NCBI RefSeq assembly: GCF_946477935.1
Contig: NZ_CAMLAC010000002.1
Location: 378 to 64,377 of the forward strand
DNA: 64,000 bases
Direction of reading: 5' to 3'
Source: an uncultured Sphingomonas sp.
GTDB taxonomy: Bacteria > Pseudomonadota > Alphaproteobacteria > Sphingomonadales > Sphingomonadaceae
A program made the translations under genes and the position numbers. The stretch's first letter is position 1. Each line of letters starts with the position of its first letter. The notes under the pieces are model-generated. The model saw only the letters and a program-made list of their open reading frames with translations, had not been told where the DNA came from and did no database searches. This document shows, one piece after another, positions 10,591 through 59,156 of this stretch.

Positions 10591-10593
10591 TCG

Positions 10594-36517: not shown

Positions 36518-37393
36518 ATGGAACTCAATCAGGTCAGCTATTTCATAAACTTGGCTGCGACGCTGAACTTTACCGAGGCAGCTCGGCTGAGTGGCGTATC
36601 GCAGCCAAGCCTGACCCGCGCTATCCGCCGACTAGAAGAGGAACTAGGCGGTGCGCTGATCTATCGGGACGGAAAGAACAGCCGCCTCACCGGACTGGGC
36701 CAGGATGTCGAAGCGGAGTTCCGGCGAATGCTCTTCGCCCTGAAAAGCGTGCGCGATCATTCCGAGAACTGGACGATGGGGCGGCACCGGGTGCTGGACA
36801 TCGCCGTGGCGCCAACCGTCAGTCCCAAAGCGTTTGGGACCTTCTTCGAAGGTGCCCTGGATAAGGTGCCCTCAATCGAGATCAGGCTGCACTCGCTCCA
36901 GTCGAGCGAGGACACGTCGGAAGTGTTATCAGGCAAATATCACGCTTGTATCCTGCCGCGGGAAATCCGCCCGGACCGTAAGCTCGATATCCGTCCTCTC
37001 TTTCGAGAGCGCTTTGTACTCGCCTGCGCGGTCGAGCACCCATTGGCGAACGCAGATATTGTGCGCGGTGAGGACTTGTCGAGATATCCGGTCGTCGATC
37101 GACTCAAATGCGAGTTTCGTGACCAGATAGTGGAACACTTTGCGCGGCGCGACGTGGTCATGCGCCCACGCTTCCGTTCCGAGCGAGAAGACTGGGTTCA
37201 TCGAATCGTCGCCGAAGGTCGCGCGATATGCATCTTGCCGGAGCGATCGGCGGCAGACACTGGTCTCGTAACTCGACCGATCGAAGGTTTCACCTTGGAA
37301 CGAGAAGTGGTGATCGCGACTGTTTCCGGTTCGACGGCTCCGGTCGAGATCCGGAAGGTAGCGCAACTCGCGGCCCGACACGAATGGCAGTGA
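36518..37393 (+). CDS. LysR-family regulator, OxyR-like Cys198
   Basis: MELNQVSYF...NFTEAA...SQPSLTRAIRRLEEELG; effector domain DRLKCEFRDQ with Cys at residue 198. Confidence 0.9.
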   Translation: MELNQVSYFINLAATLNFTEAARLSGVSQPSLTRAIRRLEEELGGALIYRDGKNSRLTGLGQDVEAEFRRMLFALKSVRDHSENWTMGRHRVLDIAVAPTVSPKAFGTFFEGALDKVPSIEIRLHSLQSSEDTSEVLSGKYHACILPREIRPDRKLDIRPLFRERFVLACAVEHPLANADIVRGEDLSRYPVVDRLKCEFRDQIVEHFARRDVVMRPRFRSEREDWVHRIVAEGRAICILPERSAADTGLVTRPIEGFTLEREVVIATVSGSTAPVEIRKVAQLAARHEWQ

Positions 37394-37411
37394 GTCAGAC
37401 AAAGCGTCAGA

Positions 37412-37441
37412 GCTATGGAAACTATGCTCACAGCGTATTGG
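37412..37441 (+). promoter_or_regulatory. 30-bp LysR/OxyR-like box upstream of msrB-msrA-gst
   Basis: GCTATGGAAACTATGCTCACAGCGTATTGG. Confidence 0.7.
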
Positions 37442-37540
37442 ATAAGTGACGTCGCCACTGCGATAGTCGATGTGACGACAGATCAGTCAAGCTGAACTCA
37501 GTGCGCCCGGCCCTCTAAACTTAGTATTGGAGATCGAATC

Positions 37541-37984
37541 ATGAAGTTCGAGAAGACACAGGCGGCTATTGACCGCCTCACCCCAGAGCAACGTCGCATT
37601 ACCCAGGAACACGGCACCGAGCGGGCGTTCACGGGTGAATATAACGACAACAAGGAGCCGGGCATTTACGTCGATGTCGTCTCGGGCGAGCCGCTTTTCG
37701 CGTCGACCGATAAGTTCGAATCTCGCTCCGGCTGGCCGAGTTTCACCAAGCCAATCGTCCCGGCGCATATCAACGAGGTGCGAGACAGCTCGCACGGGAT
37801 GGTCCGGACGGAAGTTCGGTCGGTGCACGGTGACAGCCATCTCGGCCACGTGTTTCCGGACGGTCCGTCCGACCGCGGCGGCCTGCGCTACTGCATCAAC
37901 TCGGCAGCGCTCCGCTTCATCCCGCGCGATGAGATGGAGGCGGAAGGCTACGGCGAATATCTCGACCAGGTAGAGGAGGCTTAA
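37541..37984 (+). CDS. msrB: Peptide-methionine (R)-S-oxide reductase
   Basis: GTERAF, GWPSF, HLGHVF.DGP, RYCINS; single Cys. Confidence 0.95.
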
Positions 37985-37985
37985 C

Positions 37986-38525
37986 ATGCAACAGCGCGCT
38001 GTTCTCGCTGGCGGCTGCTTTTGGGGCATGCAGGATCTGATCCGCAAGAAACCCGGCATCATCTCGACCCGCGTGGGCTATACCGGCGGCGACGTCCCCA
38101 ATGCCACCTATCGCAATCATGGCACCCACGCCGAGGGCATCGAAATCATCTTCGACCCCGAGGTGACGAGCTATCGAAACATCCTGGAATACTTTTTCCA
38201 GATCCACGATCCGACCACGAAGGACCGTCAGGGCAACGATCGCGGTCTCTCCTACCGGTCAGGCATCTACTACGTCGACGAGGAGCAGAAGCGCATCGCC
38301 GAAGATACGATCGCCGACGTGGATGCATCGGGGTTGTGGAACGGCAAGGTCGTCACCGAGGTCAAGCCCGTGGGCGATTTCTGGGAGGCCGAGCCGGAGC
38401 ATCAGGACTATCTCGAGAAGCGTCCGGGTGGCTACACCTGTCACTTCGAGCGAAAGGACTGGGTGCTTCCGAAGCGCCAGGATGCCGGCGGTTCGCAAGC
38501 TGCGGTCGCTGCACGAGCTGAATAG
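37986..38525 (+). CDS. msrA: Peptide-methionine (S)-S-oxide reductase, copy 2
   Basis: [39 protein letters not shown]. Confidence 0.95.
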
Positions 38526-38657
38526 GACGACACTCTTACGCGCCGCCGCCGACTGTGGTCGCTCACTTCGTGACCGCATCGCCATGCGATGCGGTCCTCG
38601 AGTTGGAGACTGACCAGGCACCCATTCGGACCAAGCCTGCCCGAGGATCGCAGCCGT

Positions 38658-39362
38658 ATGCCAGACTTCTCCTCGTTCCCGATCGCGCAACGATGGCCAG
38701 CGGCACATCCGGAGCGGGTGCAGCTTTACGCCGCACCGACGCCGAACGGCGTGAAGGTGTCGATCATGCTCGAAGAGACCGGGCTCGCCTACGAGCCGCA
38801 TTTCGTTGATATCTCGAAGAACGAGTCGAAGGACCCGGCCTTCGTATCGCTTAATCCGAACGGGCGCATACCTGCGATCATCGACCCCCTTGGTCCGGGC
38901 GGCACGCCGATCGGCGTCTGGGAATCCGGGGCTATTCTGGTCTATCTGGCGGATAAGACCGGCCAGTTCATGCCGATCGCTCCGGCTGCGCGCTACGAGA
39001 CGCTGAGTTGGGTATTCTTTCAGATGTCGGCGATCGGGCCCATGTTCGGTCAGTTGGGCTTCTTCCTGCGATGGGGCGGCAAGGACTTCGAGGATAAACG
39101 CCCCCAGCATCGCTTCGCCGATGAATCCAAGCGACTGCTTGGGATCGTCGATCGTCAGCTCGATGGACGCGACTGGATCACCGGCGAATATTCGATCGCC
39201 GACATCGCTACGCTCGGCTGGGTGAACGCGCTCGTTACCTCATATGACGCCGGCGACCTTCTCGGACTGAAGGATTTCTCGAACATAGCCGCCTGGCTCG
39301 AACGCGGTCTCGCGCGACCGGCAGTAAGGCGCGGGCTGCTCGTTCCGGCCAGAACTATATGA
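38658..39362 (+). CDS. Glutathione S-transferase family, YfcG/YghU-like disulfide oxidoreductase
   Basis: TPNGVKVSIMLEE, NPNGRIPAI, ESGAILVYL, YSIADIA. Confidence 0.9.
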   Translation: MPDFSSFPIAQRWPAAHPERVQLYAAPTPNGVKVSIMLEETGLAYEPHFVDISKNESKDPAFVSLNPNGRIPAIIDPLGPGGTPIGVWESGAILVYLADKTGQFMPIAPAARYETLSWVFFQMSAIGPMFGQLGFFLRWGGKDFEDKRPQHRFADESKRLLGIVDRQLDGRDWITGEYSIADIATLGWVNALVTSYDAGDLLGLKDFSNIAAWLERGLARPAVRRGLLVPARTI

Positions 39363-40327
39363 GCGTCATTGCCAGTTATTATTACAACGAGGGGAAGCGC
39401 GTTCGAGAGGTCGCGATCGACGAGAGTGTCGCGCCCGACAAAAGCCGATCAGGCTTCTGCTGGATCGGTTTGAGTGAGCCGACCACGGAGGAGCTGCGCT
39501 CGCTCCAGGAAACCTACGGCCTACATCCTTTGGCCATCGACAACGCGATGCACCCGCAATGTCCTCCGAAGCTCGAGGTCTACAACGACGAGCTTTACGT
39601 GGTCGCCAAAACAGCCGAGCTGGACGGAGACCGTATCCGTTACGGCAAGACGGCCATCTTCATGGGCCACAATCATCTTATCACTGTGCGACACGGGACG
39701 CCGGGCGCCTTGGGGAATCTCCGGGAGCAGCTTGAGGCATCACCGACGCTGTTCGGCAAGGGCGTCGACTACGTCCTCCATGCGATCCTGCACCGCATCG
39801 TCGACCAGTACCTCCCGATCTTCGAGATGATCGAGGACGATGTTCTGGCGATGGAGCGCCGTTCACTCGACGACTTCCTCGGCCGCAAGGAGGTCGCTCG
39901 CATTTTTGGCCTGAGGTGCGAGTTGACGAGGTTTCAGCGGACACTGGGAGCGATGGCCGAGCTGGTGCGCAAGCTCGTCCGGGGGCACTTCCCTTGCATC
40001 AGCACAGAGGTCCGGCCGTACTTCAACGACGTCGCGGATCATGTCTCGCGCGTGCAGGCAATGGTCGACGGCCTCCTGCAGGTCCTGTCGTCCGTTTTCG
40101 AGTTCAGCAGCCTGCTGGAAGCGCAGCGGACCGGCGTCATCACCCGGCAACTCGCCGCCTGGGCCGCGATCCTCGCCGTGCCCACCGCGATCGCCGGGAT
40201 ATACGGCATGAACTTCAGGCACATGCCCGAGCTGGACACCGCCTACGGCTATTTCGTCGTGCTCGGGGTGATGACGTTGTTCTGCCTCTTCCTGTTTTTG
40301 CGCTTCAAAAAGGCGAAATGGCTGTGA
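39359..40327 (+). CDS. CorA-family Mg2+/Co2+ transporter
   Basis: GLHPLAIDNA, C-terminal PTAIAGIYGMNF (GMN motif). Confidence 0.93.
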   Translation: MSVIASYYYNEGKRVREVAIDESVAPDKSRSGFCWIGLSEPTTEELRSLQETYGLHPLAIDNAMHPQCPPKLEVYNDELYVVAKTAELDGDRIRYGKTAIFMGHNHLITVRHGTPGALGNLREQLEASPTLFGKGVDYVLHAILHRIVDQYLPIFEMIEDDVLAMERRSLDDFLGRKEVARIFGLRCELTRFQRTLGAMAELVRKLVRGHFPCISTEVRPYFNDVADHVSRVQAMVDGLLQVLSSVFEFSSLLEAQRTGVITRQLAAWAAILAVPTAIAGIYGMNFRHMPELDTAYGYFVVLGVMTLFCLFLFLRFKKAKWL

Positions 40328-40421
40328 ACGCCGCTCCTCGCTCTTTGTTTATCTGCGCGGCCATTCACAGTGCTGCCTCAACCGGAACGGCCCTGATCGT
40401 ACAACAGGCAAAGGAGTACAC

Positions 40422-40994
40422 ATGACTAACCAGGTGTCCGACGTTCTAGAGGCCGTGCAGTCCTTCGTCTCAAAGGGCTATGATCGCGAGTACCGCGTCA
40501 AAGAAGGGCGCCTGGTCGATCTAGAGCTTGGATCCACGCTGGACGCCTGCGCAATCCAAGTTGATGCTGCCCTGCGCCTGGAAAGCGGCGACGACGCCGA
40601 AGACGCCTCGAACATCTACGCGATCACCGATCCCACAACCCAGCACAAGGGGCTGCTGATCGATGCCTTCGATGTCTTCGATGAGATCTGCCACCGTGAC
40701 CTGGCCGAACGTCTCTCAGAGCAGCGAGAAACGATGCCGGCCGGTGATGAAGACGTCCCTAGCAAGCACGGCCTGCGCAAGGTTTACAAAGCCGATTTCG
40801 ACAGTGATCCCGAGCGCTACGTCCTGCGCGAAGGCTTTCCGGATTTTCCAGCCTGTCCGTTTGGCGGCGCCTTCAACATCCTTGGTTTCGACACCGCCGA
40901 GCAAACGTACGTTTGGCTGGTCACGAGCATCATTCGCGACCCGCGGCTGATCCGCATCCCATACCAGGGCGAGGGTGTCATCTCAGACGAATAG
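40422..40994 (+). CDS. Acidic hypothetical protein (190 aa)
   Basis: AAGGAG RBS; overlaps the next gene region; no family recognised. Confidence 0.7.
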   Translation: MTNQVSDVLEAVQSFVSKGYDREYRVKEGRLVDLELGSTLDACAIQVDAALRLESGDDAEDASNIYAITDPTTQHKGLLIDAFDVFDEICHRDLAERLSEQRETMPAGDEDVPSKHGLRKVYKADFDSDPERYVLREGFPDFPACPFGGAFNILGFDTAEQTYVWLVTSIIRDPRLIRIPYQGEGVISDE

Positions 40995-41070
40995 CGCGGT
41001 CCGGCGAGCAGCAGCCGTTGTTTGGTCGCTGCGCTCACAATTCATGCTAGCGGAATCCAAAGAGGGTGAG

Positions 41071-41520
41071 ATGGATTGGAATAAGGATCACGTGCGGGAA
41101 ACGATGCTCTCGCTTGAAGCGGCTGCCCTGCAGAGCGCCCGCGAGAAATATCTGGATTATGTTTCCACCGCTCGGCTCGATCGAAGCGAGCCGATCGAGA
41201 ACGACGAACAGGCCCAGGCCGAGGTCGCGAGCGACTTCGCGGAAGCGCTCGACGACACGCTCGATGATTACGCCGACAAGCTCGACAAGCTCAGGATGAT
41301 CGACTTCGGACCGAAAACCGCAGTCGCGGAAGGCGCGCTCGTAAAGCTGTCGGGCCGCTACTTCGTGATCGCTGTCTCGACCAGCAAGTTCATGTGCCAC
41401 GGGCAAGAGCTCATGGGGATCTCAACGATGGCGCCGATTTATGAAGCCATCGAGGGCGCGCAACCTGGAGAGACTGTGCAATTCAACGGCCGCGATCTTC
41501 GGGTGGAAGAGATCGCGTAG
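41071..41520 (+). CDS. GreA/GreB-like protein
   Basis: N-terminal acidic-tipped coiled coil (DRSEPIENDEQ) and C-terminal GISTMAPIYEAIEGAQPGETVQFNG...VEEI resembling the Gre C-terminal domain. Confidence 0.55.
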   Translation: MDWNKDHVRETMLSLEAAALQSAREKYLDYVSTARLDRSEPIENDEQAQAEVASDFAEALDDTLDDYADKLDKLRMIDFGPKTAVAEGALVKLSGRYFVIAVSTSKFMCHGQELMGISTMAPIYEAIEGAQPGETVQFNGRDLRVEEIA

Positions 41521-41539
41521 ACCCCGACGAGATCGGCCC

Positions 41540-42820
41540 CTAACGTGTGGCGTGTCGACGCCGGTCTTGCTTTTGTATCATCGCGTCGAGTGCGCCCGTG
41601 ATCATCGGCGCGCTCGGGCAACGGGTGGCCCTCACCGCCAGAGAGTGCTCCGGACACCGATAGACGATGGCGAGCGCTGAAAGGACTGTCAGCAGCGCCG
41701 CGGCGTACAGGAAAAGGCCGCCGGGACCAGCGAGGCTCATTGCCACCCCGGCGACCAGCGGTCCTACGGCCGTCCCAATGCCGTTGAGCAGCAAAAGACC
41801 GCGCGCGGTTCCCAGAAGACGAGCGGCTGGGAGATCGTCGTTCGCGACCGCGACGCACAGCGAGTATATCGGAATACCGAACCCGCCGAAAAGGGCTCCC
41901 ACGGCGAGTAGCAGGGGCAGGGGTGCTTCGGTCGTTAGCGCGACCCCTACGGCGGCCGCCGCAGATGCGAGGGCGGCACCGGCGATGATCAGATTGCGGG
42001 GCACCCGGTCAGACAGCCAGCCAAGCGGCCATTGCAACGCCAGCGTGCCTCCAAGGACCGCGGCCATGAAGGCAGAGATCCCGGCTACATCGAGACCAAT
42101 TTTTTGGGCGAAGCTCGGACCCATTCCCCAGAATCCGCCGATGGCCAGGCCCGTCAGGAAGGCCCCGATCGTCGCGAGAGGCGAGATCGATAGAAGGTCC
42201 CGAAACGCGACCGGCTCCTGTTCAACTTCGGCCGGAGGATGACTGGGCAACAGGGTGATCGGCACCACCGCCGCCGATATGAGCACCGATACGATAAGGA
42301 ACAGCGTCACACCGGCGGGCGGCGCGATGTTGAGGAGCGCTTGCCCGACGGCCCAGGACCCCATCGAAACGACGCCGAAAATCGACAGGAGCTGCCCGCG
42401 GGTCGAAGGCAATGCGTGCGCGTTGAGCCAGCTTTCGGTCGCGAGGATCATGCCGGCGTAAGCAAGACCGGTGACCATGCGAAGCGGCATCCACGCCAAC
42501 GGCTCCACCAGCGCGGCATGAAGAATGGCCGTGATCGATGCGATGGCTGCGAAGCCGGCGAACGTCCTCACATGACCGACGGATACAATGACGCGCGGCA
42601 GCAATAGGGCGCCGATGGTAAACCCCGAGAAGTAGGCCGACATCATCGCGCCGATACTGCCACTCGAGAACTCTTCCTGTCCGGCCCGGACGATCAGCAG
42701 GGTGCCCAGCAATCCATTGCCAAGCAACAGGAAGGCGACACTCAGCAACAGCGCGGCCACAGGCGCGAGTGCGAGACCGCGCGTGGCAGCCACTTTGATC
42801 GACTCCATCGGAGGGGTCAT
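41540..42820 (-). CDS. MFS transporter (YcaD-like)
   Basis: About 12 TM; LLLGNGLLGTL, ESWLN, LGWLSDRVPR, YSLCVAVAND. Confidence 0.88.
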   Translation of the reverse strand: MTPPMESIKVAATRGLALAPVAALLLSVAFLLLGNGLLGTLLIVRAGQEEFSSGSIGAMMSAYFSGFTIGALLLPRVIVSVGHVRTFAGFAAIASITAILHAALVEPLAWMPLRMVTGLAYAGMILATESWLNAHALPSTRGQLLSIFGVVSMGSWAVGQALLNIAPPAGVTLFLIVSVLISAAVVPITLLPSHPPAEVEQEPVAFRDLLSISPLATIGAFLTGLAIGGFWGMGPSFAQKIGLDVAGISAFMAAVLGGTLALQWPLGWLSDRVPRNLIIAGAALASAAAAVGVALTTEAPLPLLLAVGALFGGFGIPIYSLCVAVANDDLPAARLLGTARGLLLLNGIGTAVGPLVAGVAMSLAGPGGLFLYAAALLTVLSALAIVYRCPEHSLAVRATRCPSAPMITGALDAMIQKQDRRRHATR

Positions 42821-42905
42821 CTTCGGTTCCGCCGGACTAACCAGCTCCCGCGTGATCGGTTTGCGATCGGCCAACGCGACTTTTCGTTGCGGAAGCGGGT
42901 CACGA

Positions 42906-43886
42906 TCACTGCGGCATCTCGACATGTCCGCCGAAGCCGAAGCGCATCGCCGAAAGCAGTTTATCACCGAAGGTATGTTCGACGCGGCTCCTGTAACGCG
43001 CATACAACGCGGCCGAGAGGACGTTGACCGGCACCGCTTCCTCCATCGCCGCCTCGATCGTCCATCGGCCCTCGCCTGAGTCGGAGACATGGCCCGAGAA
43101 CTGCTCGAGCATCTGATCCCGCGCGAGCGCAGCGGCCGACAGGTCTAGCAGCCAGGACGAGATCACGCTGCCGCGACGCCACACCTCGGCGACATCGGTG
43201 AGGTTGATGTCGAACCGCTCGTCTTCGGGCAGTTTCGCCGACGACCGACCCTTGAGTATGTCGAAGCCTTCAGCATAGGCCTGCATGAGCCCGTACTCGA
43301 TGCCGTTATGGACCATCTTCACGAAATGGCCCGCCCCGGCCGACCCTGCGTGGATGTAGCCCTTCTCCGCGCGCGGGTCGTGGCCGTCGCGGCGATCGAC
43401 TGTGCGCGGTATCGTTCCCAGACCCGGCGCGAGAGCAGAGAAAATGGGATCGAGATGATCGATCACCGGCTTTTCACCGCCGATCATCATGCAGTAGCCG
43501 CGATCAAGCCCCCACACCCCGCCCGACGTCCCGACATCGACAAAGTGGACGCCGCGCTCCGCGAGATCCTTGGCGCGATGGATATCGTCCTTGTAGAAGG
43601 CGTTGCCGCCATCAATGATGATATCGCCCGGCGCAGCGAGGTCGGCGATCGCGGCGATCATCGCCTCGGTCGGCTTGCCGGCCGGCAGCATCACCCAGTA
43701 GATCGCCGGCTTGTCGAGCTTGCTGCGCATGTCGGCCAGCCCCGAGGCACCTACCGCTCCTTCTCGCACGAGCTCGGCAACAGGCTCGGGCGAGCGGTTG
43801 TAGACTATGGTGTCATGGCCGTGCCGGATCAGCCGCCGGGCTATGTTTGCACCCATGCGGCCGAGCCCAATGATGCCGATCTTCAT
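42906..43886 (-). CDS. gnd: Decarboxylating 6-phosphogluconate dehydrogenase (short type)
   Basis: [49 protein letters not shown]. Confidence 0.95.
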
Positions 43887-43962
43887 TTTCTTCTCCGCCT
43901 TGCAACACATTGTGGTGAAGTTGGCCGCATCGATTTTGCGATATCGGCGCGCCCTTCCGGTT

Positions 43963-44451
43963 TCATGATGCTCGAGAAGGGTGTCGATACTCGGCCGCGC
44001 TGATGAAGCGGTCGAACGCCTCGCACCAGATCACCACCGTGTTAAATGCGGCAACGTCGACGTCGGCCGGGACGGCGATGATGAAGCCATTGAAGGTCTT
44101 CACATCGCCAATGCGGCGCGAATTGTTCTTGATTGCAAGGAAGGCGTCTTTCGTGCCCGCAAATCGCGGAGCGAGGTAAAGCTTGTAATCCGGACCGGGG
44201 GAGAGGCGGCCGATGTGCGCTATCCGTTCGCGCGACACTTTCACGTCTCCTTCGCCCCAGTGGACGAAATCGCTGCCCTCAAGACGGCGCTCGAATCGCC
44301 CGGTGTAGAGCGCTTCCGCTTCGGTCGAAGCAAACGCCGCCGCATCGGGCAGAGGCGGCGCCGTAAGGATCGGCAGGGCGTAGATGCCGGCGGCAAACCC
44401 CAGTGACAGTGTCGCGACATGAGTCGTGGCAAGGATAAGCCAACGGCGCAT
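43963..44451 (-). CDS. DM13 domain protein, exported
   Basis: N-terminal anchor; G.F...[21 protein letters not shown]. Confidence 0.85.
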
Positions 44452-44454
44452 CGA

Positions 44455-44928
44455 TCAAGCCCGTTCCAGGTGCGCCACCAGCTTGTCCGCATCGAGGTGG
44501 AAGTCCGAGAATATGACCGCCCCGCTGGAGTTTATGACGCTGAACCAAGGCGTGCCCCGTGTCCGGTAATCCTCCATGAATGTGGGAAGGCGCGCGCCAT
44601 GCGGAGCAGGATCATGGCCGAAGACGACTGGCAGCTCGTACTTTAACTGGTTCGTCCGCAGCTTCTCGAAGGTGTTTTCGTGCTCGCCCTCGAACACCGT
44701 CTGGATCACCGCAAAGCCGACACCCTTGGTTGCTAGGGCGGCGTGGAGCCGCTGCAACGTGGGGAAGCCGTGCAGGTGGCAACCGCGACACCAGTGCTGA
44801 AACGCAAAGAGGATCTTCGGTCCTGATCCCAGCTGAGAGAGCGTAACTGGAACGTCCAGCTCCTTGCCGTCCCCGCCGATCCATTGCATCACCCGAAGCT
44901 CAGGGGCTGATTGCTCGGGAGCGGCCAC
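44455..44928 (-). CDS. Thioredoxin-fold redoxin (AhpC/TlpA-like)
   Basis: AFQHWCRGCHLHGFP (CxxC), GTPW cis-Pro motif. Confidence 0.8.
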   Translation of the reverse strand: MAAPEQSAPELRVMQWIGGDGKELDVPVTLSQLGSGPKILFAFQHWCRGCHLHGFPTLQRLHAALATKGVGFAVIQTVFEGEHENTFEKLRTNQLKYELPVVFGHDPAPHGARLPTFMEDYRTRGTPWFSVINSSGAVIFSDFHLDADKLVAHLERA

Positions 44929-45109
44929 TGTGTCTCTCCTCCTCAGTTATGCCGTTCGACATCCAGGATCACTTTTTCCAGACCACAGCGGGCGAGCCTG
45001 CCGGGCCTTCGCTGATGTTCTGCCTGCTCTCCGGGATCATGACCGCACCTTAAGCAGCCTTCGATGCCGATCCGGGCGTCGACACTATGAAGTTTGCGCT
45101 TTCTGTTTT

Positions 45110-45139
45110 CCAATAGCGGTAGGCTATAGTTTCAATAGC
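45110..45139 (-). promoter_or_regulatory. 30-bp LysR/OxyR-like box in the divergent redoxin / thioredoxin-fusion intergenic region
   Basis: Minus strand GCTATTGAAACTATAGCCTACCGCTATTGG; plus strand shows ATAG-N7-CTAT-N7-ATAG. Confidence 0.75.
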
Positions 45140-45244
45140 TGCGCTGTAAGTTCACAAGCTCGCGGCACTTTACGTGAGCTCAAATATGCGATGTTGCAGA
45201 AATCGATCAGGTGAATTCCTGTAGCGCTTCACTAAATAGATAGC

Positions 45245-46168
45245 ATGACAAACACTCGAGTTTCACATCGCGAGCATCGTGAGCTCGGCGACGTCGCATG
45301 GCTGCGCGACTACGATCACGCGACGGCGCTCGCGGCCGCTCAGGGCAAGCCCGTGTTGCTGCTATTTCAGGAAGTTCCGGGGTGCGCGACCTGCGTGCAC
45401 TTCGGGCAGGACGTTTTGACGCATCCTTTGATGGTGGAGCTGATCGCCGAGCGGTTCGTGCCGGTGGCGATCTTCAACAATCATCCCGGTGCTGATGCCA
45501 GGATAATGCGGCTCTATGGCGAGCGCTCCTGGAACAACCCGGTCATGCGCTTCCTTCGGTCGGACGGAACCGAGCTTTTGCCCCGTCTGGCGGATCGCTA
45601 CGATCCGCTCGCCCTTCATGAGAAGCTCAGCGCCGCTCTGGAAGCGCTCGGTGGCGACGTGCCGGCCTATTTCCGCCTATTGGGGCGTGATCTGCTCATC
45701 GAGCATGGCTTGAGCGAGGGGGGCGTCTACACGACGCCGTGCTTCTGGTCGGGGGAGACGAGCCTCGCTCAACATCCCGCCGTTATCACAACCGATGCGG
45801 GTTGGGTGGATGGCGAAGAAGCTGTGCAGGTACAGTTTGACCCGCGCGCCGTCAGCCGGGCTGACCTGAACACCTACGCCCATGCAGAGGGCTTCGCATC
45901 GGTGGCGCATGGCATCTTCCGCCTAGACCGCGAACCGCAATTCTACCTGCGCAAGAACGCCGTCCGCCATCTGCCGCTGTCGGCGGCGCAGCGAACTCGG
46001 ATCAACTTGGCCGTACCGTATCGCAATCCGATCCCTGACTTGCTCAGCCCGCAGCAGTCCGCTTGGCTTGCAGATCCGCTACTGCAGCGCGTGAGCGACG
46101 GAGAGACCTACCGCCAAGACATTCGCGATAGCTGGCCGGTGCTAAAGACGCAGCTCGGTTCCGCATGA
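45245..46168 (+). CDS. Thioredoxin-like (VPGCxxC) domain fused to an MsrA-like domain
   Basis: VLLLFQEVPGCATC...SWNNPV (VPGUxxT-type thioredoxin family, Cys form), then PCFWSGE...VITTDAGW..GEEAVQVQFDP resembling MsrA GCFWG.E...V.ST.VGY...EAVEV.FDP. Confidence 0.75.
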   Translation: MTNTRVSHREHRELGDVAWLRDYDHATALAAAQGKPVLLLFQEVPGCATCVHFGQDVLTHPLMVELIAERFVPVAIFNNHPGADARIMRLYGERSWNNPVMRFLRSDGTELLPRLADRYDPLALHEKLSAALEALGGDVPAYFRLLGRDLLIEHGLSEGGVYTTPCFWSGETSLAQHPAVITTDAGWVDGEEAVQVQFDPRAVSRADLNTYAHAEGFASVAHGIFRLDREPQFYLRKNAVRHLPLSAAQRTRINLAVPYRNPIPDLLSPQQSAWLADPLLQRVSDGETYRQDIRDSWPVLKTQLGSA

Positions 46169-46334
46169 AGTGGAGTGATCATTTCGGGACTCGATTGGAT
46201 CAGACGGCGGTCGATTGCGCTCCGATGCGATGATCGGGGTGTCGCCGCTCGCGACTGCGGACCACTTCCCAGGCTTTTCGTGTGCTCGCTCGTGCCTTTG
46301 TACTGGCGATCGCGCCGCATCCGATGCCCTAACG

Positions 46335-46364
46335 GCTATTGAAACTATAGTCACAGGGCATTGG
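46335..46364 (+). promoter_or_regulatory. 30-bp LysR/OxyR-like box upstream of the Mo-oxidoreductase operon
   Basis: GCTATTGAAACTATAGTCACAGGGCATTGG. Confidence 0.75.
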
Positions 46365-46569
46365 GAAAGGGCGCTCTTCCGAAGTTATAGTCAACACGTT
46401 GTCGCCACGAATCGTGACGAACGAAGTCATGTCTATACCGACAGAGCTTCAGGCACCTAGGTTTCAGAAAGTTTATCTTCGTTTCGATCCGCATGCGTAA
46501 GTCTTGTGACGCAGGGGAGTAAGCTGAAGACTAGGCCGGGGCTGTCGCGACGAACAAGGGGAGTCCGGC

Positions 46570-47175
46570 ATGGTCACCAGAGGTTTTACCGGTCGCGGAT
46601 CGGGCAGCGACCAGTCCGGCCGGATCCCGCCTGGCCAGCATCTCGTTGAGAATTTTCCGGTTCTGACCGCCGGACCGACCCCGGACCTCGATACCGCGAA
46701 ATGGAATTTCACGGTCAAGATCGGGCCGAAGCCCGTCAAGGTCTGGAACTGGAGCCAGTTCAACGCTCTGCCTCAAACCAGGGTGAAGAAGGACATTCAC
46801 TGCGTCACGTCCTGGTCCAAGCTGGATACGGCATGGGACGGCGTACTCATCGAGGACATCCTCGCAGACGCCGGGCTCGAGCACCCCACCGATTTCGTCC
46901 TCGTGCATTCGTACGACGGTTACTCGACGAACGTGCCGCTGGCGGATTTGCTTTCGGACAAGGCGATGGTCGCGCTCAAATATGCCGGGCAGCCGCTTCC
47001 GCGCGATCATGGCGGCCCAGCGCGCCTGCTCGTGCCGCACCTGTACTTCTGGAAGTCGGCCAAGTGGGTGAAAGCGCTGCAGTTCACGACGCGCGACGAA
47101 GCCGGCTTCTGGGAACTTCGCGGCTATCACATCTACGGCGATCCGTGGCGCGAGCAGCGATACACTCATGACTGA
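46570..47175 (+). CDS. Sulfite-oxidase-like molybdopterin oxidoreductase, no export signal
   Basis: RIPPGQ, DIHCVTSWS (Mo-ligand Cys), DGYSTNVPL, HGGPARLLVPHLYFWKSAKW. Confidence 0.88.
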   Translation: MVTRGFTGRGSGSDQSGRIPPGQHLVENFPVLTAGPTPDLDTAKWNFTVKIGPKPVKVWNWSQFNALPQTRVKKDIHCVTSWSKLDTAWDGVLIEDILADAGLEHPTDFVLVHSYDGYSTNVPLADLLSDKAMVALKYAGQPLPRDHGGPARLLVPHLYFWKSAKWVKALQFTTRDEAGFWELRGYHIYGDPWREQRYTHD

Positions 47176-47914
47176 AGGCGCCGTGCAGGCAGCGCCGTGG
47201 CAGAAGGCCGTGATTGACCAGGTCGTCCAACAGACCCCGGCCATCAAAAGCTTCTTCTTCCGGCTGCGCACGCCTTTCACCCATGTGGCGGGTCAGCACG
47301 TCGATGTGCGCCTGACGGCGCCTAACGGCTACACGGCGATGCGCAGCTATTCGATTGCCTCACCGACCAGCGATGCAGGGGTCCTTGAGCTCGCCATCGA
47401 ACGCTTGCCCGACGGGGAGGTATCCCCCTTCTTTCACGACGTCGCAGCGGTCGGTGACGAGATCGAACTTCGCGGCCCACTCGGCGGGCACTTCCTCTGG
47501 CCGGGGCAGGGAGCCGAGCCGATCCTTCTGATCGGAGCAGGCTCTGGTCTGGTCCCGCTGATGGCCATGATCCGGCAGCGCCGTGAGATGGCACAGACTG
47601 TTCCGACAGCGCTGCTCCTGTCAGCCCGCACGGCGCGCGACGTCCTGTTCTCGGACGAGCTGCTGGCCATCGAACTGGATGATCCCGCCTTCGTGCTGAC
47701 GCTGGCGATCACGCGTGAAGCTCCGAAGCGTGCGACAGACTTCGCGCGGCGGATCGATAGCACGGTCGTCCAGGAGGTGGTCAGTCGGCTTCCCCGCACG
47801 CCTGCCCACGTCTTCGTCTGCGGGTCGAACGGCTTCGTGAACATAGCGGCCGATGGCGCACTGCTCGCCGGTCTGGACGCCGCGGCAATCAAGACCGAGC
47901 GATACGGTGGATAA
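47168..47914 (+). CDS. FNR-like FAD/NAD(P)H oxidoreductase
   Basis: RSYSIAS, GEVS, GPLG.F, IGAGSGLVP, FVCGSNGFV; overlaps the Mo-enzyme stop. Confidence 0.9.
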   Translation: MTEGAVQAAPWQKAVIDQVVQQTPAIKSFFFRLRTPFTHVAGQHVDVRLTAPNGYTAMRSYSIASPTSDAGVLELAIERLPDGEVSPFFHDVAAVGDEIELRGPLGGHFLWPGQGAEPILLIGAGSGLVPLMAMIRQRREMAQTVPTALLLSARTARDVLFSDELLAIELDDPAFVLTLAITREAPKRATDFARRIDSTVVQEVVSRLPRTPAHVFVCGSNGFVNIAADGALLAGLDAAAIKTERYGG

Positions 47915-49006: not shown

Positions 49007-49085
49007 TGCGACGACCACGCCGCACGACCGCGACAGCGTCCCGCTGCCTCATTCCAGCGCAATTCCAGCATACCGGGAGATCAGC

Positions 49086-50351: not shown

Positions 50352-50361
50352 AGGGGGCAGC

Positions 50362-51435
50362 ATGATGAAGGCAATCCGCTTCCATGAATTCGGTGCCCCG
50401 GACGTGCTCCGATACGAAGACGCTCCAAAGCCAGACATCAAGCACGGAGAAGTGCTGATCCGCGTGATCGCCGCCGGCATCAACCCGCCCGACTGGTATC
50501 TGCGGGAAGGGTATAAGGCATTGCCGCCGGAATGGCGGCCGGAGGTCGCGTTCCCGGTCATTCCCGGATCGGACGTGTCCGGTGTCGTCGTTGCCGTCGC
50601 AGACGATGTGCAGGGCTTCGTGCCCGGCGACGAAGCGTTCGGCATGATCCGTTTCCCGAGTTACGGCGACAGCCTGGGATATGCCGAATATGTATCCGCG
50701 CCGGCATCAGACCTCGCCATCAAGCCGCGGTCGATCGATCACGTGCACGCCGCGGCAGTCCCGATGTCGGGCCTCACCGCTTGGCAATTCCTGATCAGTC
50801 TAGGTCACGACGAGCCCAATCCGCTGCAGCCGGATCGGCACCAGCCGGTCCCGCTTGCCGGCAAATGGGTCCTCGTCAATGGCGCGGCCGGCGGGGTCGG
50901 CCATCTCGCGGTCCAGTTGGCGAAACAGCAGGGCGCACGCGTCATCGCCGTCGCCTCGGGCCGGCACGAGAATTTCCTGGACGATCTCGGTGCGGACGAT
51001 TTCATCGACTATACCAAGACTGCGGCAGAAGATGTCGTGCGCGACGTCGATCTGGTGGTCGACGCGGTCGGCGGTCCTACGGCAGACCGCTTCCTGCGCA
51101 CGATCCGACGCGGCGGCGCGCTATTCCCGATCTTTCCGCTTGGTTTCACCGGCCAGGACGACGCCGCTCGGCTCGGTGTAACCGTCTCGGCGACGCAGGT
51201 CAGATCGAATGGTGCGCAGCTCGCGGAGCTTGGGCAGTTGCTCGAAAGCGGGGCCGTCCGTGTCGCTATCGACGGCACCTACCCGCTATCGCAGGCTTCC
51301 GCCGCGCACGAGCGCGCTGCGGACGGGCACATCCAAGGGAAGATCGTACTCACCGTCGGTGACGCAGATCCGCGCCCTGTAAGTACATCTGCCGTGTCGC
51401 CGACGACATGGCCGCCGCGCACGATCGGCCACTGA
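50362..51435 (+). CDS. NADP-dependent quinone-oxidoreductase-like MDR
   Basis: MKAIRFHEFGAPDVL, GINPPDW, PGSDVSG, NGAAGGVGH, GHIQGKIVL. Confidence 0.9.
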   Translation: MMKAIRFHEFGAPDVLRYEDAPKPDIKHGEVLIRVIAAGINPPDWYLREGYKALPPEWRPEVAFPVIPGSDVSGVVVAVADDVQGFVPGDEAFGMIRFPSYGDSLGYAEYVSAPASDLAIKPRSIDHVHAAAVPMSGLTAWQFLISLGHDEPNPLQPDRHQPVPLAGKWVLVNGAAGGVGHLAVQLAKQQGARVIAVASGRHENFLDDLGADDFIDYTKTAAEDVVRDVDLVVDAVGGPTADRFLRTIRRGGALFPIFPLGFTGQDDAARLGVTVSATQVRSNGAQLAELGQLLESGAVRVAIDGTYPLSQASAAHERAADGHIQGKIVLTVGDADPRPVSTSAVSPTTWPPRTIGH

Positions 51436-51539: not shown

Positions 51540-53144
51540 GTGGCTCTGAACGCTAACACAGCGGATGTAGGTGCGATCCATCGCGCCAAGGCTCTTGCGG
51601 ACCTGATGGTCCTCGACACGCCTGACGAGCAAACCTTCGACGATCTCGTCTTTATCGCGGCAAAGGCCTGCGATGTCCCGATCGCACTGATCACGCTCCT
51701 CGATGTCGATCGACAATGGTTCAAGGCCAAGTACGGGCTCGACGTCCAGGAAACGGAGATCGAGCACTCCGTATGCCGGATAGAAATAGATCGCGGCGAC
51801 ATGCTCGAGATTACGGATCTGACCGCCGATCGTCGCACAAACTGCAACCCGCTCGTCACAGGTGCCCAGCACTTCCGCGCTTATGCCGGCGCACCGCTGG
51901 TCCTGCGCTCCGGTGTCGTGGTCGGCCGGCTGTGCGTCATCGACACCGAGCCACGCCCGGAAGGGTTGAGTGAGTTGGAAAGGGCGATGCTGCGTGCTCT
52001 CGCTCGCCTCGCCAGCGAGAACCTCGAGCTTCGTCGGACCGCCATGGCCAGCAATCGTCTGACGGAGTTGCAGGCCGCCTTGGTCGAGGTCGGCGAGGCC
52101 ATTCGCGGTAGCGGAGACGCTGGGCAGATGGCGTCAGCGACCGCAGCAATCGTCGGGCGGGTGCTGACTGCAGATCGCGCAGGCCTGGGGTCAGTCGACG
52201 ACGCAATCGAGACGATCGACATCAAGACCGACTGGACTGCGCCCGGAATTCTCAGCCTCGCCGGCCGTCATCGCCTCGATGAGTATGTGAGTTTGCGGGA
52301 GCCGCTCGTGTATGGCGACCCGCTGGTGGTCGCTGACGCCCTCACCGACGAACGCGCAGTCTCGAACCTTGCGATCGCAATGCGCATCGGGGTTCGCGCG
52401 CTTGTCGATATGCCGGTCCGGGAACATGGCAGGACGATCGCCTTGTTCTTCGTTCATTCGGCGCAGCCTAGACCTTGGCTGGCAGAAGAGATCGCGTTTC
52501 TCCGTAGCGCGACCGACCGTCTCGAAGCCGGTGTTGCGCGACATCGATCGGACGAGCAACAGCGCATCGTAAACGGTGAGATTGCGCACCGGCTGAAGAA
52601 CATGCTGACGATGGTTCAAGCGATCGCGAGCCAGACACTGCGATCAGCGAGCGACCGTGAATCAGTCTATGCCTTCGAACGCCGCCTGATGGCGCTGAGC
52701 GCCGCGCATGACGCCCTGCTTCAAAATAGCTGGGCGCAGGCCGACCTCAAATCAATAGCGACGACCGTGGTCGAGGCGATCGGGTTCATGGATCGCGTCA
52801 AGATGGACGGCCCACCAGTGGCGTTGGGGGCGCGGGCAGCGCTCTCCTTCTCGCTGATCGTGCACGAGCTTCTGACAAACGCCTGCAAATACGGGTCTCT
52901 CACGGGCGACTCCGGAGAAGTCTCGCTCACCTGGGAGATCGAGACCAACGATGGTGACGATCGCCTCATGATAAAATGGCGAGAGCGGGGGGGACCTCCA
53001 GTCACTCCACCTACGCGCCGGGGCTTCGGCTCGAAGCTTATCAGCATAGGCTTGGCCGGCACCGGCGGAGTGGACCTTCGCTACGATCCGGACGGATTCG
53101 CGGCCGACTTGCAAGCCCCCATGCGCCACCTGGCCAAGGGCTGA
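51540..53144 (+). CDS. HWE-family sensor histidine kinase with two GAF domains, cytoplasmic
   Basis: GAF (YAGAPL...GRLCVID), EIAHRLKNML H-box, HELLTNACKYG, WRERGGP; no TM segments. Confidence 0.92.
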   Translation: MALNANTADVGAIHRAKALADLMVLDTPDEQTFDDLVFIAAKACDVPIALITLLDVDRQWFKAKYGLDVQETEIEHSVCRIEIDRGDMLEITDLTADRRTNCNPLVTGAQHFRAYAGAPLVLRSGVVVGRLCVIDTEPRPEGLSELERAMLRALARLASENLELRRTAMASNRLTELQAALVEVGEAIRGSGDAGQMASATAAIVGRVLTADRAGLGSVDDAIETIDIKTDWTAPGILSLAGRHRLDEYVSLREPLVYGDPLVVADALTDERAVSNLAIAMRIGVRALVDMPVREHGRTIALFFVHSAQPRPWLAEEIAFLRSATDRLEAGVARHRSDEQQRIVNGEIAHRLKNMLTMVQAIASQTLRSASDRESVYAFERRLMALSAAHDALLQNSWAQADLKSIATTVVEAIGFMDRVKMDGPPVALGARAALSFSLIVHELLTNACKYGSLTGDSGEVSLTWEIETNDGDDRLMIKWRERGGPPVTPPTRRGFGSKLISIGLAGTGGVDLRYDPDGFAADLQAPMRHLAKG

Positions 53145-53151
53145 CGGAGGA

Positions 53152-53520
53152 ATGCGTATAATGATGAGGCCCGTGGTTCTCGTCGTAGAAGACGAACCAC
53201 TTGTTCGGCTTTTCGCATCGGACATGATCGAGGAAGCCGGTTTCGAGGTGCTGCAAGCGGCCGATGCCACGGACGCGATCGTCACGCTGGAAGGTCGGCT
53301 CGATGTCCGTGTCGTCTTCACCGATGTGGACATGCCTGGCGGGATCGACGGCATCATGCTGGCGATCTGCATTCGGGAGCGCTGGCCCGCCATTCAGATC
53401 ATCATCACTTCCGGCAGACCCTGGCCGGAGGGGACGGACATCCCTGACGACATGGTCTTTTTCTCGAAGCCATATCGTCAGGACCGGGTGCTGGAGACTG
53501 TTCGGAGGATGGCGGCATGA
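53152..53520 (+). CDS. Single-domain response regulator
   Basis: VLVVEDE, VFTDVDMPG, ITSG, FSKPY; no output domain. Confidence 0.92.
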   Translation: MRIMMRPVVLVVEDEPLVRLFASDMIEEAGFEVLQAADATDAIVTLEGRLDVRVVFTDVDMPGGIDGIMLAICIRERWPAIQIIITSGRPWPEGTDIPDDMVFFSKPYRQDRVLETVRRMAA

Positions 53521-55433: not shown

Positions 55434-55706
55434 ATGACGCCCGAAATTATCCTCTACACGACCAATTGGTGCCCTTTTTGCCGCCGCGCGAGGGCGCTTC
55501 TCACCCAGAAGGGCGTGAAATGGACTGAACACGACATCGAGGAGGATCCTGCTCAGCGCCAGGCAATGATCGAGGCCTCAGGCCGGGACACGGTTCCACA
55601 GATATTCATCAACGGCACGCACGTCGGAGGGTCTGATGACCTCTTTGATCTCGATGCCAAAGGCGGCCTCGACAAGCTGCTCGCAGGTGAGGCGTCCGCG
55701 ACCTGA
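55434..55706 (+). CDS. grxC: Glutaredoxin 3
   Basis: WCPFC, TVPQIFI, GGSDDL. Confidence 0.93.
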   Translation: MTPEIILYTTNWCPFCRRARALLTQKGVKWTEHDIEEDPAQRQAMIEASGRDTVPQIFINGTHVGGSDDLFDLDAKGGLDKLLAGEASAT

Positions 55707-55754
55707 TGCGACTGGCAAAGGCGCGCCCAGACATCGATGGAATGAAGGAACAGA

Positions 55755-56036
55755 ATGGTTTCGGCAGTTTGGAACGGCGCCACTATCGCCGCGAGCGAAG
55801 TGACCGTGATCGTCGACGGAAATCACTATTTTCCGCCAGAGGCGGTTGACCAAAGCAGGCTCGAGGCGAGCGATCACTCGTCCGTCTGTCCAGTCAAGGG
55901 CTCAGCGCGCTATTTTCATGTGCGGGCGGGCGGCGAGCGCAATCCGGATGCGGCCTGGACGTACCCCGACCCGACCGCAGAAGCCGAAGCGATCAGGGGT
56001 TATTTCGCATTCTGGAAGGGCGTGGAGGTTGCGTAG
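55755..56036 (+). CDS. DUF427-family protein
   Basis: GNHYFPPE, SVCPVKGSARY, AAWTYPDP, AFWKGV. Confidence 0.9.
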   Translation: MVSAVWNGATIAASEVTVIVDGNHYFPPEAVDQSRLEASDHSSVCPVKGSARYFHVRAGGERNPDAAWTYPDPTAEAEAIRGYFAFWKGVEVA

Positions 56037-56060
56037 GCCCCGCCTCGGAGGCGGCCGCTG

Positions 56061-57806: not shown

Positions 57807-57896
57807 ACCTTCGAGCCGCGGCTATACTGCCTACTTGTCGGCGCCCCTGCTTTCGACCGGCGCTCGCACATCAAATCCTCAACAGGAGAAGCTCGA

Positions 57897-58652
57897 ATGT
57901 CGAAAGTTCTACAAGGGAAGGTCGCGTTGATCACCGGCGGCTCTCGGGGTCTCGGTGCCGTGCTGGCAGAGACGCTCGCCGACCAGGGAGCAGATATCGC
58001 GATCACCTACGCCGCATCTGCCGCCAAGGCTGAAGCCGTGGTCGAGAAGGTGAGGGCCAAAGGGGTGCGGGCGATCGCCATTCAGTGCGATCAGGCGGAT
58101 AGCGCGGCTGCGCAGCCGATGGTCGAGCAGGTGGTCTCTGAGTTCGGCAAGCTCGACATCCTCATCAACAACGCAGCGATCGCGGTCCAGGGCAAGCTGG
58201 TCGATGATCCCACGCTTGATGGCCCTGCCTTTGACAAGCAGTGGATCGTCAACGTGCTCGGGACCGTGGCGGTAACGCGGGCGGCGGCGCAAAAGATTTC
58301 GGACGGCGGCCGGATCGTCTTCATCGGGTCCGGACTTGGCACGCGCGCGATCGTTCCGGGGGTTGCCGATTACGCCGGCACTAAGGCGGCCATCGCCGGA
58401 TATGCCCGCGGCGTGCAGCGCGATCTGGGGCCGCGCAATATCACGGTGAACGTGGTGCAGCCGGGCATCATGCCGACCGACATGGCGGCAGGAGCTGCGG
58501 AAAATTTCCCTGAAGCCGTCCTGGACCTACACCCGATACGTCGCATCGCTACCATCGAGGAAGTCGCGTCCGCGGTGAGCTACCTCGTTGGTCCGACCGC
58601 CAGCTACACAGCCGGGGCCGTGATCGACGTGTCCGGCGGTGTCCTGGTCTAG
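57897..58652 (+). CDS. Short-chain dehydrogenase/reductase
   Basis: TGGSRGLG, NNAAI, YAGTK, QPG. Confidence 0.92.
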   Translation: MSKVLQGKVALITGGSRGLGAVLAETLADQGADIAITYAASAAKAEAVVEKVRAKGVRAIAIQCDQADSAAAQPMVEQVVSEFGKLDILINNAAIAVQGKLVDDPTLDGPAFDKQWIVNVLGTVAVTRAAAQKISDGGRIVFIGSGLGTRAIVPGVADYAGTKAAIAGYARGVQRDLGPRNITVNVVQPGIMPTDMAAGAAENFPEAVLDLHPIRRIATIEEVASAVSYLVGPTASYTAGAVIDVSGGVLV

Positions 58653-58794
58653 AGGCGCTGTCTTGATGGCAAGTGCATCGGCGCCGGACCGCCGTATCGC
58701 GGCGCCCCCCACGGCAGGCGGGCGGGTCCGCCCGCCCGCCGCGCAGAGGTGCCTGCCGAGCACGTCCCGTCCCCATACCGCATCGGCAGCCTGA

Positions 58795-59061
58795 ATGGAA
58801 AACCCCGATTTCGAAGCTACGCTCGAAGGTCTGCCGCGCGGCTATAGCGAAGGGTTTTTCGATGGCCGCCGCTATGGCGTGTCGGTGCAGCGATCTGACG
58901 ACGGTCGGCGAAATAGCCTGTTTGCGAGAGATCTCGCCGGCACCGACATCGTGAGCTTCAATCTGTACCGAGTGGCGAACGGCGAGACGTTGCTCAGGCC
59001 TTGCGAGATGTCCTCGGAGAAAGTGGTCCGCTTTGTGCTTGGGTTCACGCCCGTCAACTAA
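58795..59061 (+). CDS. Small hypothetical protein with C-terminal PCEM motif (88 aa)
   Basis: SFNLY...LRPCEM; protein-like composition; single Cys. Confidence 0.65.
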   Translation: MENPDFEATLEGLPRGYSEGFFDGRRYGVSVQRSDDGRRNSLFARDLAGTDIVSFNLYRVANGETLLRPCEMSSEKVVRFVLGFTPVN

Positions 59062-59126
59062 CTTCTCTCTCGCACGCCGTGCAAGGGTTGGAAACACAAA
59101 CGCTACTCGCGCCTTAGCCGCTGAAG

Positions 59127-59156
59127 GCTATCGAAACTATAGCTGCCGGTTATTGG
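59127..59156 (+). promoter_or_regulatory. 30-bp LysR/OxyR-like box upstream of dps
   Basis: GCTATCGAAACTATAGCTGCCGGTTATTGG. Confidence 0.75.

Follow-up and report, generated by a model that had tools for sequence, protein, structure and literature searches.

The window analysed here, a 64,000-nucleotide stretch of DNA from an uncultured Sphingomonas sp. (C2:378-64377 of a 3.93-Mb assembly in 356 contigs), encodes a LysR-type transcriptional regulator (LTTR; 36518..37393, plus strand) and contains four copies of a 30-bp box, each placed ahead of a gene or operon with a likely role in stress defence. Judging from sequence comparisons, this 291-residue regulator very probably binds the four boxes as its operators and controls the four promoters attached to them, probably as an activator. 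The system is best described as a distinct LysR subfamily, so far uncharacterised, whose operator is conserved and which constitutes a portable stress regulon. The same uncharacterised module is found on many plasmids, including clinical Enterobacterales plasmids.

The explanation that we favour overall, and consider likely, runs from operator binding through to thiol sensing of an oxidant. The island regulator would bind the four boxes and activate four weak sigma-70-type promoters, with the dyad GCTAT-N7-ATAGC, centred near -54, serving as recognition site, and a weaker half-site overlapping the -35 serving as activation site. The output would be a self-contained mobile stress regulon comprising MsrB/MsrA with a glutathione S-transferase (GST) and CorA; a thioredoxin-fold protein with DM13, a 6PGDH-like protein and a major facilitator superfamily (MFS) transporter; a cytoplasmic molybdenum (Mo) oxidoreductase with its reductase; and Dps. 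Induction is most likely by an oxidative signal, which would probably be sensed via Cys198, in the loop preceding helix 201-210.

The 30-bp box and its predicted promoters

Box 1 (37412..37441, plus strand; GCTATGGAAACTATGCTCACAGCGTATTGG) starts 18 bp past the lysR stop codon. Box 2 (45110..45139; GCTATTGAAACTATAGCCTACCGCTATTGG) lies on the minus strand and faces a minus-strand operon, while box 3 (46335..46364; GCTATTGAAACTATAGTCACAGGGCATTGG) and box 4 (59127..59156; GCTATCGAAACTATAGCTGCCGGTTATTGG) are both on the plus strand. Relative to the gene that it precedes, the orientation of the box is the same in all four cases. An earlier sequence-only reading of the window had reported four 30-bp boxes at these positions and on these strands, and direct reading of each site bears this out. 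The shorthand in which it wrote the pattern, with N8 before ATTGG, does not sum to 30 and has no match when taken literally; the real spacing is N10. Written as GCTAT-N-GAAACTAT-R-N10-ATTGG, the pattern has exactly four sites in the window with up to three mismatches allowed, and none in 100 shuffles.

The box is equally confined at the scale of the genome. Throughout the 3.93-Mb assembly, only the four window boxes match the pattern at up to two mismatches, and the 13-bp core CTATNGAAACTAT occurs only within them. In a whole-genome scan with a weight matrix derived from 57 unique boxes found in other genomes, the four boxes scored 39-47 bits and nothing else reached 14 bits. Within the window, no weaker box of at least 12 bits was found before the VPGUxxT thioredoxin-like gene, DsbD-Trx, the HWE kinase or other genes.

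To describe the box architecture, we took the box with its flanks from the window and from 80 related loci; the 183 instances reduce to 90 unique sequences of 125 nt. Over the unique sequences, information content is about zero upstream of the box, high over G(c/g)TAT-N-GAAACTAT(a/g) and (g)TATTGG(a), low over the 18 nt that follow the box, high at nATAGT, and low again thereafter. Each box holds three half-sites one helical turn apart, CTAT-N7-ATAG-N7-nTAT: the dyad GCTAT-N7-ATAGC, which is a T-N11-A motif, and a weaker nTAT half-site 7 bp further on. The copy at 45110 displays ATAG-N7-CTAT-N7-ATAG on the plus strand, as the sequence-only reading had claimed. ATAG/CTAT half-sites at 7-bp spacing make up the OxyR motif; three half-sites are present in the box at this OxyR spacing, and the position of a fourth OxyR-type half-site (35-38) is not conserved.

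The TTGG at the 3' end of the box opens a weak predicted -35 element (TTGGAn), followed by an 18-bp spacer and a -10-like nATAGT. The predicted elements are TTGGAT (37438-37443) and GATAGT (37462-37467) for box 1 on the plus strand; TTGGAA (45113-45108) and CATAGT (45089-45084) for box 2 on the minus strand; and, again on the plus strand, TTGGGA (46361-46366) and TATAGT (46386-46391) for box 3, and TTGGAC (59153-59158) and CATTCT (59177-59182) for box 4. A strict sigma-70 consensus scan of 36200-47000 returned no promoters, and this lack of a strong consensus promoter fits activator dependence. In a classical LysR-activated promoter, the core promoter is poor, and the protein has one strong site further upstream and a second, weaker one at the -35. 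The features expected of an LTTR operator, namely a T-N11-A dyad and a strong upstream site followed by a weaker -35 site, are found in the box sequence, and the layout of box plus core promoter is that of a LysR-activated promoter, in which start sites and activation are predicted.

Two other uses of the element can be weighed against this layout. Since the box overlaps the -35, its occupancy could block RNA polymerase, as would be expected if the regulator acted mainly as a repressor released by the signal; the promoters are weak, however (TTGGAn, 18-bp spacer, nATAGT, with no consensus-scan match), and a strong upstream site with a weaker -35 site is the classical activator arrangement, which makes repression improbable. 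It is more improbable still that the repeated 30 bp were duplicated and conserved chiefly as a promoter, such as one for an alternative sigma factor, and not as an operator. The element does overlap the predicted -35 at a fixed distance to the -10-like motif, and GAAAC resembles some extracytoplasmic function (ECF) -35 elements, but the conserved T-N11-A dyad reaches ~25 bp upstream of the -35, as is typical of LysR operators, and it persists in relatives whose downstream part has changed. In addition, no sigma factor gene is present among the island open reading frames (ORFs) scanned. A search of 35000-61000 with Rfam for leader RNAs, such as a molybdenum cofactor riboswitch, gave nothing at E <=0.1.

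Linkage of the regulator and the box across genomes

Relatives of the regulator were collected from a scan of one genome per species, yielding 80 related loci at 75-93% identity. These occur in Alpha-, Beta- and Gammaproteobacteria and include one Aeromonas plasmid. The box lies directly past the regulator stop codon in 79/80 loci and, wherever the flank suffices, a minus/plus pair of boxes follows 7-9 kb downstream of the regulator. This pair fronts a redoxin operon (or one for a zinc-dependent alcohol dehydrogenase, Zn-ADH) and the Mo-enzyme operon, whereas further boxes front dps-like and alpha/beta-hydrolase genes. In a set of 41 genomes of the same genus and order, the regulator is present in three (G000, G004, G007), each with four boxes; 37 are without any box, and one has a single chance-level match.

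The association extends to distant relatives. A box precedes msrB-msrA next to regulators of 63% identity (Sinorhizobium meliloti pSymA), 50% identity (a paralogue in Paracoccus), 46% identity (metagenome contigs) and 38% identity (a metagenome contig). At 44% identity (G103), where the genes have the classical divergent arrangement, the box precedes a Zn-ADH gene; at 40% identity, on a short contig, it is located at the gene end; and at 33% identity (G365), a variant dyad, GCATGGAAACCATGC, is found before a cupin/AhpD-like pair, next to YeeE. The sequence-only reading had credited the regulator with its own regulon, and the comparative support for this is strong: regulator and box are adjacent, co-occur and are jointly kept down to 38% identity, and the box is found nowhere else in the host genome, nor in relatives without the regulator.

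This distribution also bears on the possibility that chromosomal OxyR, or some other host factor, acts on the boxes and that the neighbouring LysR gene is incidental. The host does encode a canonical 2-Cys OxyR, on contig C90 (GHCLKDHALAAC, with its cysteines nine residues apart), and the half-sites and spacing of the box resemble the OxyR motif. Nevertheless, no box-like site exists elsewhere in the genome, nor in the 37 related genomes without the regulator (their OxyR content was unchecked), so that no native promoter, whether OxyR-controlled or not, resembles the box, and service by OxyR only is therefore unlikely. Moreover, the box stays beside the regulator over three proteobacterial classes, down to 38% identity. 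Taken with the rest, we give a host factor hardly any credence. Elsewhere in the genome, CTAT-N7-ATAG and ATAG-N7-CTAT sites are mostly intragenic, with no recognisable OxyR targets among them.

Two of the related loci deserve separate description. On pSymA of S. meliloti 2011 (L131, 1074234-1076200), the regulator is followed by GCTATGGAATCTATGCACATCCGATATTGG, msrB2-msrA3 (SMa1894/SMa1896) and an alpha/beta-hydrolase-OsmC gene. The one experimental pointer to the inducer is second-hand: a review table gives H2O2, NCR peptides and heat shock as inducers of SMa1894/SMa1896 (PMC6315971). With its 63%-identical regulator, the pSymA locus is a ready genetic model for the regulon. In Sphingopyxis witflariensis, an extra box (L110:9772, minus strand) stands before a divergent alpha/beta-hydrolase-OsmC gene, which implies that regulon membership varies between elements.

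The Cys198 regulator compared with OxyR and other LysR-type sensors

The start of the regulator was placed at ATG 36518, and not at the upstream ATG 36434, because in the long ORF the NCBIfam profiles match only from residue 29 onwards, and most database homologues are 291 residues long. Pfam identifies both LTTR domains, HTH_1 (PF00126, 2.8e-16) and LysR_substrate (PF03466, 6.9e-26), and the AlphaFold2 (AF2) model (pLDDT 82.5) matches full-length LTTR structures. Counted from this start, the motif LKCEFRDQ carries C198-E199, and the residues further on are H207 and F208; KCEFRDQ at residue 198, with no Cys nine residues later, had thus been read correctly, and Phe occupies position 208, which in OxyR is the resolving Cys. 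In the AF2 model, C198 is located in a loop between strand 191-195 and helix 201-210. The 42 unique proteins of the island clade all have C144, C198 and C238, and 41 of them have C170. The earlier description of a 'one-Cys' sensor is apt for the C199/C208 site, but not for the protein as a whole, which has the further conserved C144, C170 and C238 in the island clade.

A wider family was delineated by a full HMMER search of 1.84 billion representatives, which gave 98 clusters at E <=1e-30, and by a family alignment of 108 full-length representatives at 27-51% identity, for which counts are given out of 109. C198 is present in 98/109 sequences and E199 in 78/109, within the motif D-R-L-x-C-E-F-R. 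Both are among the most conserved positions of the effector domain, along with T100, E164, H174, W226 and R262, and C144, C170 and C238 are not conserved beyond the island clade. A Cys at position 208 occurs in 21/109 (for example P0163, P0165, P0171 and P0173), with the spacing C198...C208, i+10; on this alignment, the family has 1-Cys and 2-Cys forms at the 198/208 site. The gene contexts of sampled distant members are again of a redox or electrophile kind; they comprise msrBA, Zn-ADH, cupin, AhpD-like CMD, YeeE, Trx and DUF427, and one such context is an operon of short-chain dehydrogenase/reductase (SDR), patatin, cupin, MFS and DM13 genes. The family is rare, being found in 2/400 genomes at E <=1e-40 in an even sample of the phylum. 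The proposed C198-E199 LysR subfamily is delimited by its motif and by a YAT-N-GAAAC-YAT-type operator beside the gene; both were found, and the operator lies beside relatives of 33-63% identity. Searches for a curated NCBIfam model, a solved structure or a paper describing the family found none, and a literature search found no published functional study of the regulator.

Compared with OxyR, the H2O2 sensor of E. coli and P. aeruginosa, the island system is alike in its LysR fold, in ATAG/CTAT half-sites 7 bp apart in helical register, in a conserved Cys next to FRDQ, within the loop before the C208 helix, and in having Dps in the regulon. It is unlike OxyR in that the OxyR operator has four half-sites and the island operator three; in that the catalase, AhpCF, glutaredoxin and thioredoxin of the classical regulon are not part of the island regulon; and in that the island regulator gene resides on a plasmid or island, in the same direction as its target. 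Membership of the OxyR family itself was considered and rejected: the regulator scores 75 bits against the NF008361 cut-off of 329, level with CynR, AlsR and GltC, although this cut-off is E. coli-trained and the host's canonical OxyR, at 226 bits, also falls below it. BLASTP aligns the regulator with host OxyR over the N-terminal 144 residues, at 24% identity. Among PDB sequences, the regulator matches NtcB, CysB and P. aeruginosa OxyR best, each with an E of ~1e-13 to 1e-14, and the top Foldseek match of the AF2 model is P. aeruginosa OxyR, essentially tied with CcmR. In a HMMER alignment anchored on FRDQ, K-C198-E199-F-R-D-Q is set against G-H198-[C199]-F-R-D-Q. The name 'OxyR-like' given by the sequence-only reading fits only loosely. 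In its favour are the half-site geometry, a Cys in the same loop before the same helix and a marginal top structural match; it fails on the OxyR family model, the 24% N-terminal identity, the shifted Cys and a regulon without catalase or AhpC. The regulator should not be filed as OxyR, and appears to represent a distinct LysR subfamily with a conserved operator.

How the signal reaches the regulator is less certain than which sites it binds. Cys198 may well be the sensor, whether it becomes sulfenylated, S-thiolated or disulfide-bonded to another Cys, although we stop just short of calling this probable. Most LysR-type regulators are ligand-gated, and the regulator could instead bind the boxes and sense a small molecule in the effector cleft, with Cys198/Glu199 as ligand contacts and free methionine sulfoxide, an oxidised or chlorinated thiol, a quinone or electrophile, or a metal as candidate ligands. 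The joint conservation of C198-E199, H174, E164, T100 and R262 in the effector domain would suit such a role, and so would the presence of corA and dps among the regulon genes; relatives adjoin Zn-ADH/quinone-reductase-like, cupin, AhpD-like and SDR genes, typical of electrophile responses. Conversely, the Cys at the OxyR C208 position in 21/109 suggests disulfide chemistry in part of the family, the loop that holds Cys198 is the one that holds the sensor Cys in OxyR, and no adjacent biosynthetic or catabolic pathway hints at a ligand. On balance, we regard small-molecule sensing as unlikely, though it is the chief competitor where sensing is concerned.

Under thiol sensing of an oxidant, the reading that we prefer, reactive chlorine is a tentative candidate for the inducing oxidant: the regulon combines Dps and an NADPH-linked dehydrogenase with several functions for methionine sulfoxide and thiols and has no peroxide scavenger, a content that favours HOCl/chloramine-type stress over H2O2. 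The suggestion of the sequence-only reading that the sensor may be tuned to HOCl or S-thiolation agrees with this gene content and is a reasonable hypothesis. A broader proposal can be made with similar reserve. The regulator might be the founding example of an unrecognised family of thiol-based LysR oxidant sensors (Cys198-Glu199, in 1-Cys and 2-Cys forms). The island version would be a portable sensor with its regulon that answers reactive-chlorine or methionine-oxidising stress independently of host OxyR, and that owes its spread on conjugative plasmids in water-system and clinical bacteria to selection by disinfectants.

Several observations weigh against the favoured explanation. In the FRDQ-anchored alignment, C198 pairs with OxyR His198 and E199 with position 199, a one-residue offset, and a conserved pair of Cys and Glu lying in the cleft between the domains might just as well contact a ligand or a metal. 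The case for reactive-chlorine specificity comes solely from gene content and from where the carrier strains were isolated. The lysR gene is co-directional with its target, not divergent, and no box was found at its own promoter. Finally, the 80 loci are not all independent, many being copies of a single island that has spread; most of the weight lies with the distant relatives (38-63% identity).

The region upstream of lysR contains two TATATGCG-N3-CGCATA palindromes, TATATGCGTCACGCATATA at 36391-36409 and TATATGCGTCGCGCATA at 36432-36448, both intergenic, between an alpha/beta-hydrolase-OsmC gene and lysR. Because of these palindromes, lysR is probably under a different (MarR-type) operator, an arrangement that would set the LysR regulon under a second regulator.

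Three known LysR-type regulators invite comparison. HypT (YjiE) of E. coli is a hypochlorite-specific LysR-type regulator activated by oxidation of methionines (Met123, Met206 and Met230), and its link to HOCl stress and functional coupling to MsrA/MsrB recall the island system. The methionines of the island regulator, in contrast, are not invariant among the 42 orthologues, the conserved residue being a Cys; no specific sequence relationship to HypT was seen, an alignment with HypT not having been made. The Deinococcus radiodurans 'OxyR' DR_0615 is a one-Cys LysR-type sensor whose C210 is oxidised to sulfenic acid, and offers a precedent for an oxidant sensor of this type working without a resolving Cys (PMC6300522). 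It differs in having a single Cys in the whole protein, against four in the island regulator, and in its reported regulon of katE1, mntH and dps1. LsrB/VtlR of Rhizobiales is a second redox-responsive, thiol-based LysR-type regulator alongside OxyR in Alphaproteobacteria (PMC11975290). It uses the pairs C144/C273 and C236/C244, has no Cys198 motif, and acts globally from the chromosome, whereas the island regulator is mobile and local. Identity with LsrB, considered in view of the similar Cys numbering, was rejected, as C144 is present in the island clade without any Cys near 273, and C198 is the family-conserved Cys. If the proposed mechanism holds, the regulator would join OxyR and LsrB as a third kind of LysR-type redox sensor. 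It would also provide a compact study system, with one regulator, one 30-bp operator, four promoters and an orthologue in the genetic model S. meliloti, which could address the evolution of Cys-based LysR sensors and the independence of mobile elements from host regulators.

Predicted regulon genes and the mobile module

The gene calls flanking the boxes in the sequence-only reading are upheld by Pfam and NCBIfam, apart from one label, a 'Trx-MsrA fusion'. Box 1 is followed by a likely plus-strand operon (37541..41520; Pfam) of msrB, msrA, a yfcG-like GST gene, corA and two genes for unknown proteins of 190 and 181 residues. This gene order recurs in 60-74/80 loci. The two ORFs at the operon end (40422-41520) have no Pfam or NCBIfam match and are kept in 60-64/80 loci.

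Behind box 2 lies a likely minus-strand operon (41540..44928; Pfam and synteny) for a thioredoxin-fold protein, DM13, a 6PGDH-like protein and an MFS transporter. The thioredoxin-fold protein has a WCRGC motif, no Pfam match, and PDB homologues 3EYT and 3LOR. Between boxes 2 and 3, on the plus strand, is the gene mislabelled as a fusion, which encodes a type 2 VPGUxxT thioredoxin-like protein (45245..46168; NF041383, 328 bits, above the cut-off) and has no box of its own. The fusion label was at best partly right: the protein is thioredoxin-like, and its C-terminal half includes a weak MsrA-like stretch in which CFWSGE aligns to the MsrA active-site CFWGMQ (20% identity, pairwise BLAST E 4e-5), but there is no PMSR match in Pfam. 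The VPGUxxT gene is found between boxes 2 and 3 only in window-like elements (L035, L037-L039), and in L097-L100 a 73%-identical copy is located upstream of lysR.

Box 3 precedes genes for a SUOX-fold molybdoenzyme and an FNR-like FAD/NAD reductase (46570..47914, plus strand). This operon may run on into alcohol dehydrogenase (ADH) and thiolase genes (47987-51435). Box 4 precedes dps (Ferritin-like, ATG 59253) and a downstream alpha/beta-hydrolase gene (59894-60760), together spanning 59253..60760 on the plus strand; boxes ahead of dps-like genes are also found in L108, L110 and L114. No peroxide scavenger gene (katG/catalase, ahpCF) is located downstream of the four boxes, and only dps is shared with the OxyR regulon. 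A GAF-GAF-HWE histidine kinase and a stand-alone receiver are encoded at 51540-53520, between the Mo-enzyme/ADH/thiolase genes and dipZ-grx-DUF427-argS, on the same strand. This kinase/receiver pair was not detected in the flanks available for other loci.

The window encodes a TrwB-type coupling protein and a TrwC relaxase/helicase (8209-13665), from which it follows that it belongs to a conjugative element, either a plasmid or an integrative and conjugative element. It also encodes DnaE2, SRAP, MarR/DUF417/DUF6314 genes and a tyrosine recombinase. The regulator is present on 220 PLSDB plasmids, 163 of them predicted to be conjugative, with Citrobacter, Sinorhizobium, Klebsiella, Enterobacter and Aeromonas as the main hosts. 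IncU pFBAOT6 carries the regulator, the same block and three boxes, the third of which is separated from the Mo-enzyme gene by ISApu1.

In the literature, 'msrB-msrA-yfcG-corA' figures solely as part of the backbone, or as a passenger, of IncP-6/IncG KPC plasmids and of ISCR27-blaAFM regions (PMC4785139, PMC9984417). The module of IncP-6/IncG KPC plasmids, of ISCR27-associated blaAFM/blaNDM regions and of IncU pFBAOT6 has the same genes, at 76-90% protein identity. In that literature, unlike here, it is drawn without regulator, operator or function, and short plasmid versions are without lysR and box. The block is marked on the maps of many carbapenemase plasmids and was there already on IncU pFBAOT6, yet it has been regarded as inert cargo. 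Membership of an inducible, self-regulated regulon for oxidant defence, if real, would explain its persistence on plasmids of wastewater, plumbing and clinical isolates.

Among complete E. coli genomes, the block is found in 16/5426 and is always plasmid-borne; 11 of these 16 have only msrB-msrA, without regulator and box. The E. coli plasmids H86-H88 (~40-44 kb) likewise carry msrB-msrA without lysR or box, and the match starts ~20 bp upstream of msrB. On H86-H88, msrB-msrA is orphan cargo, its regulator lost.

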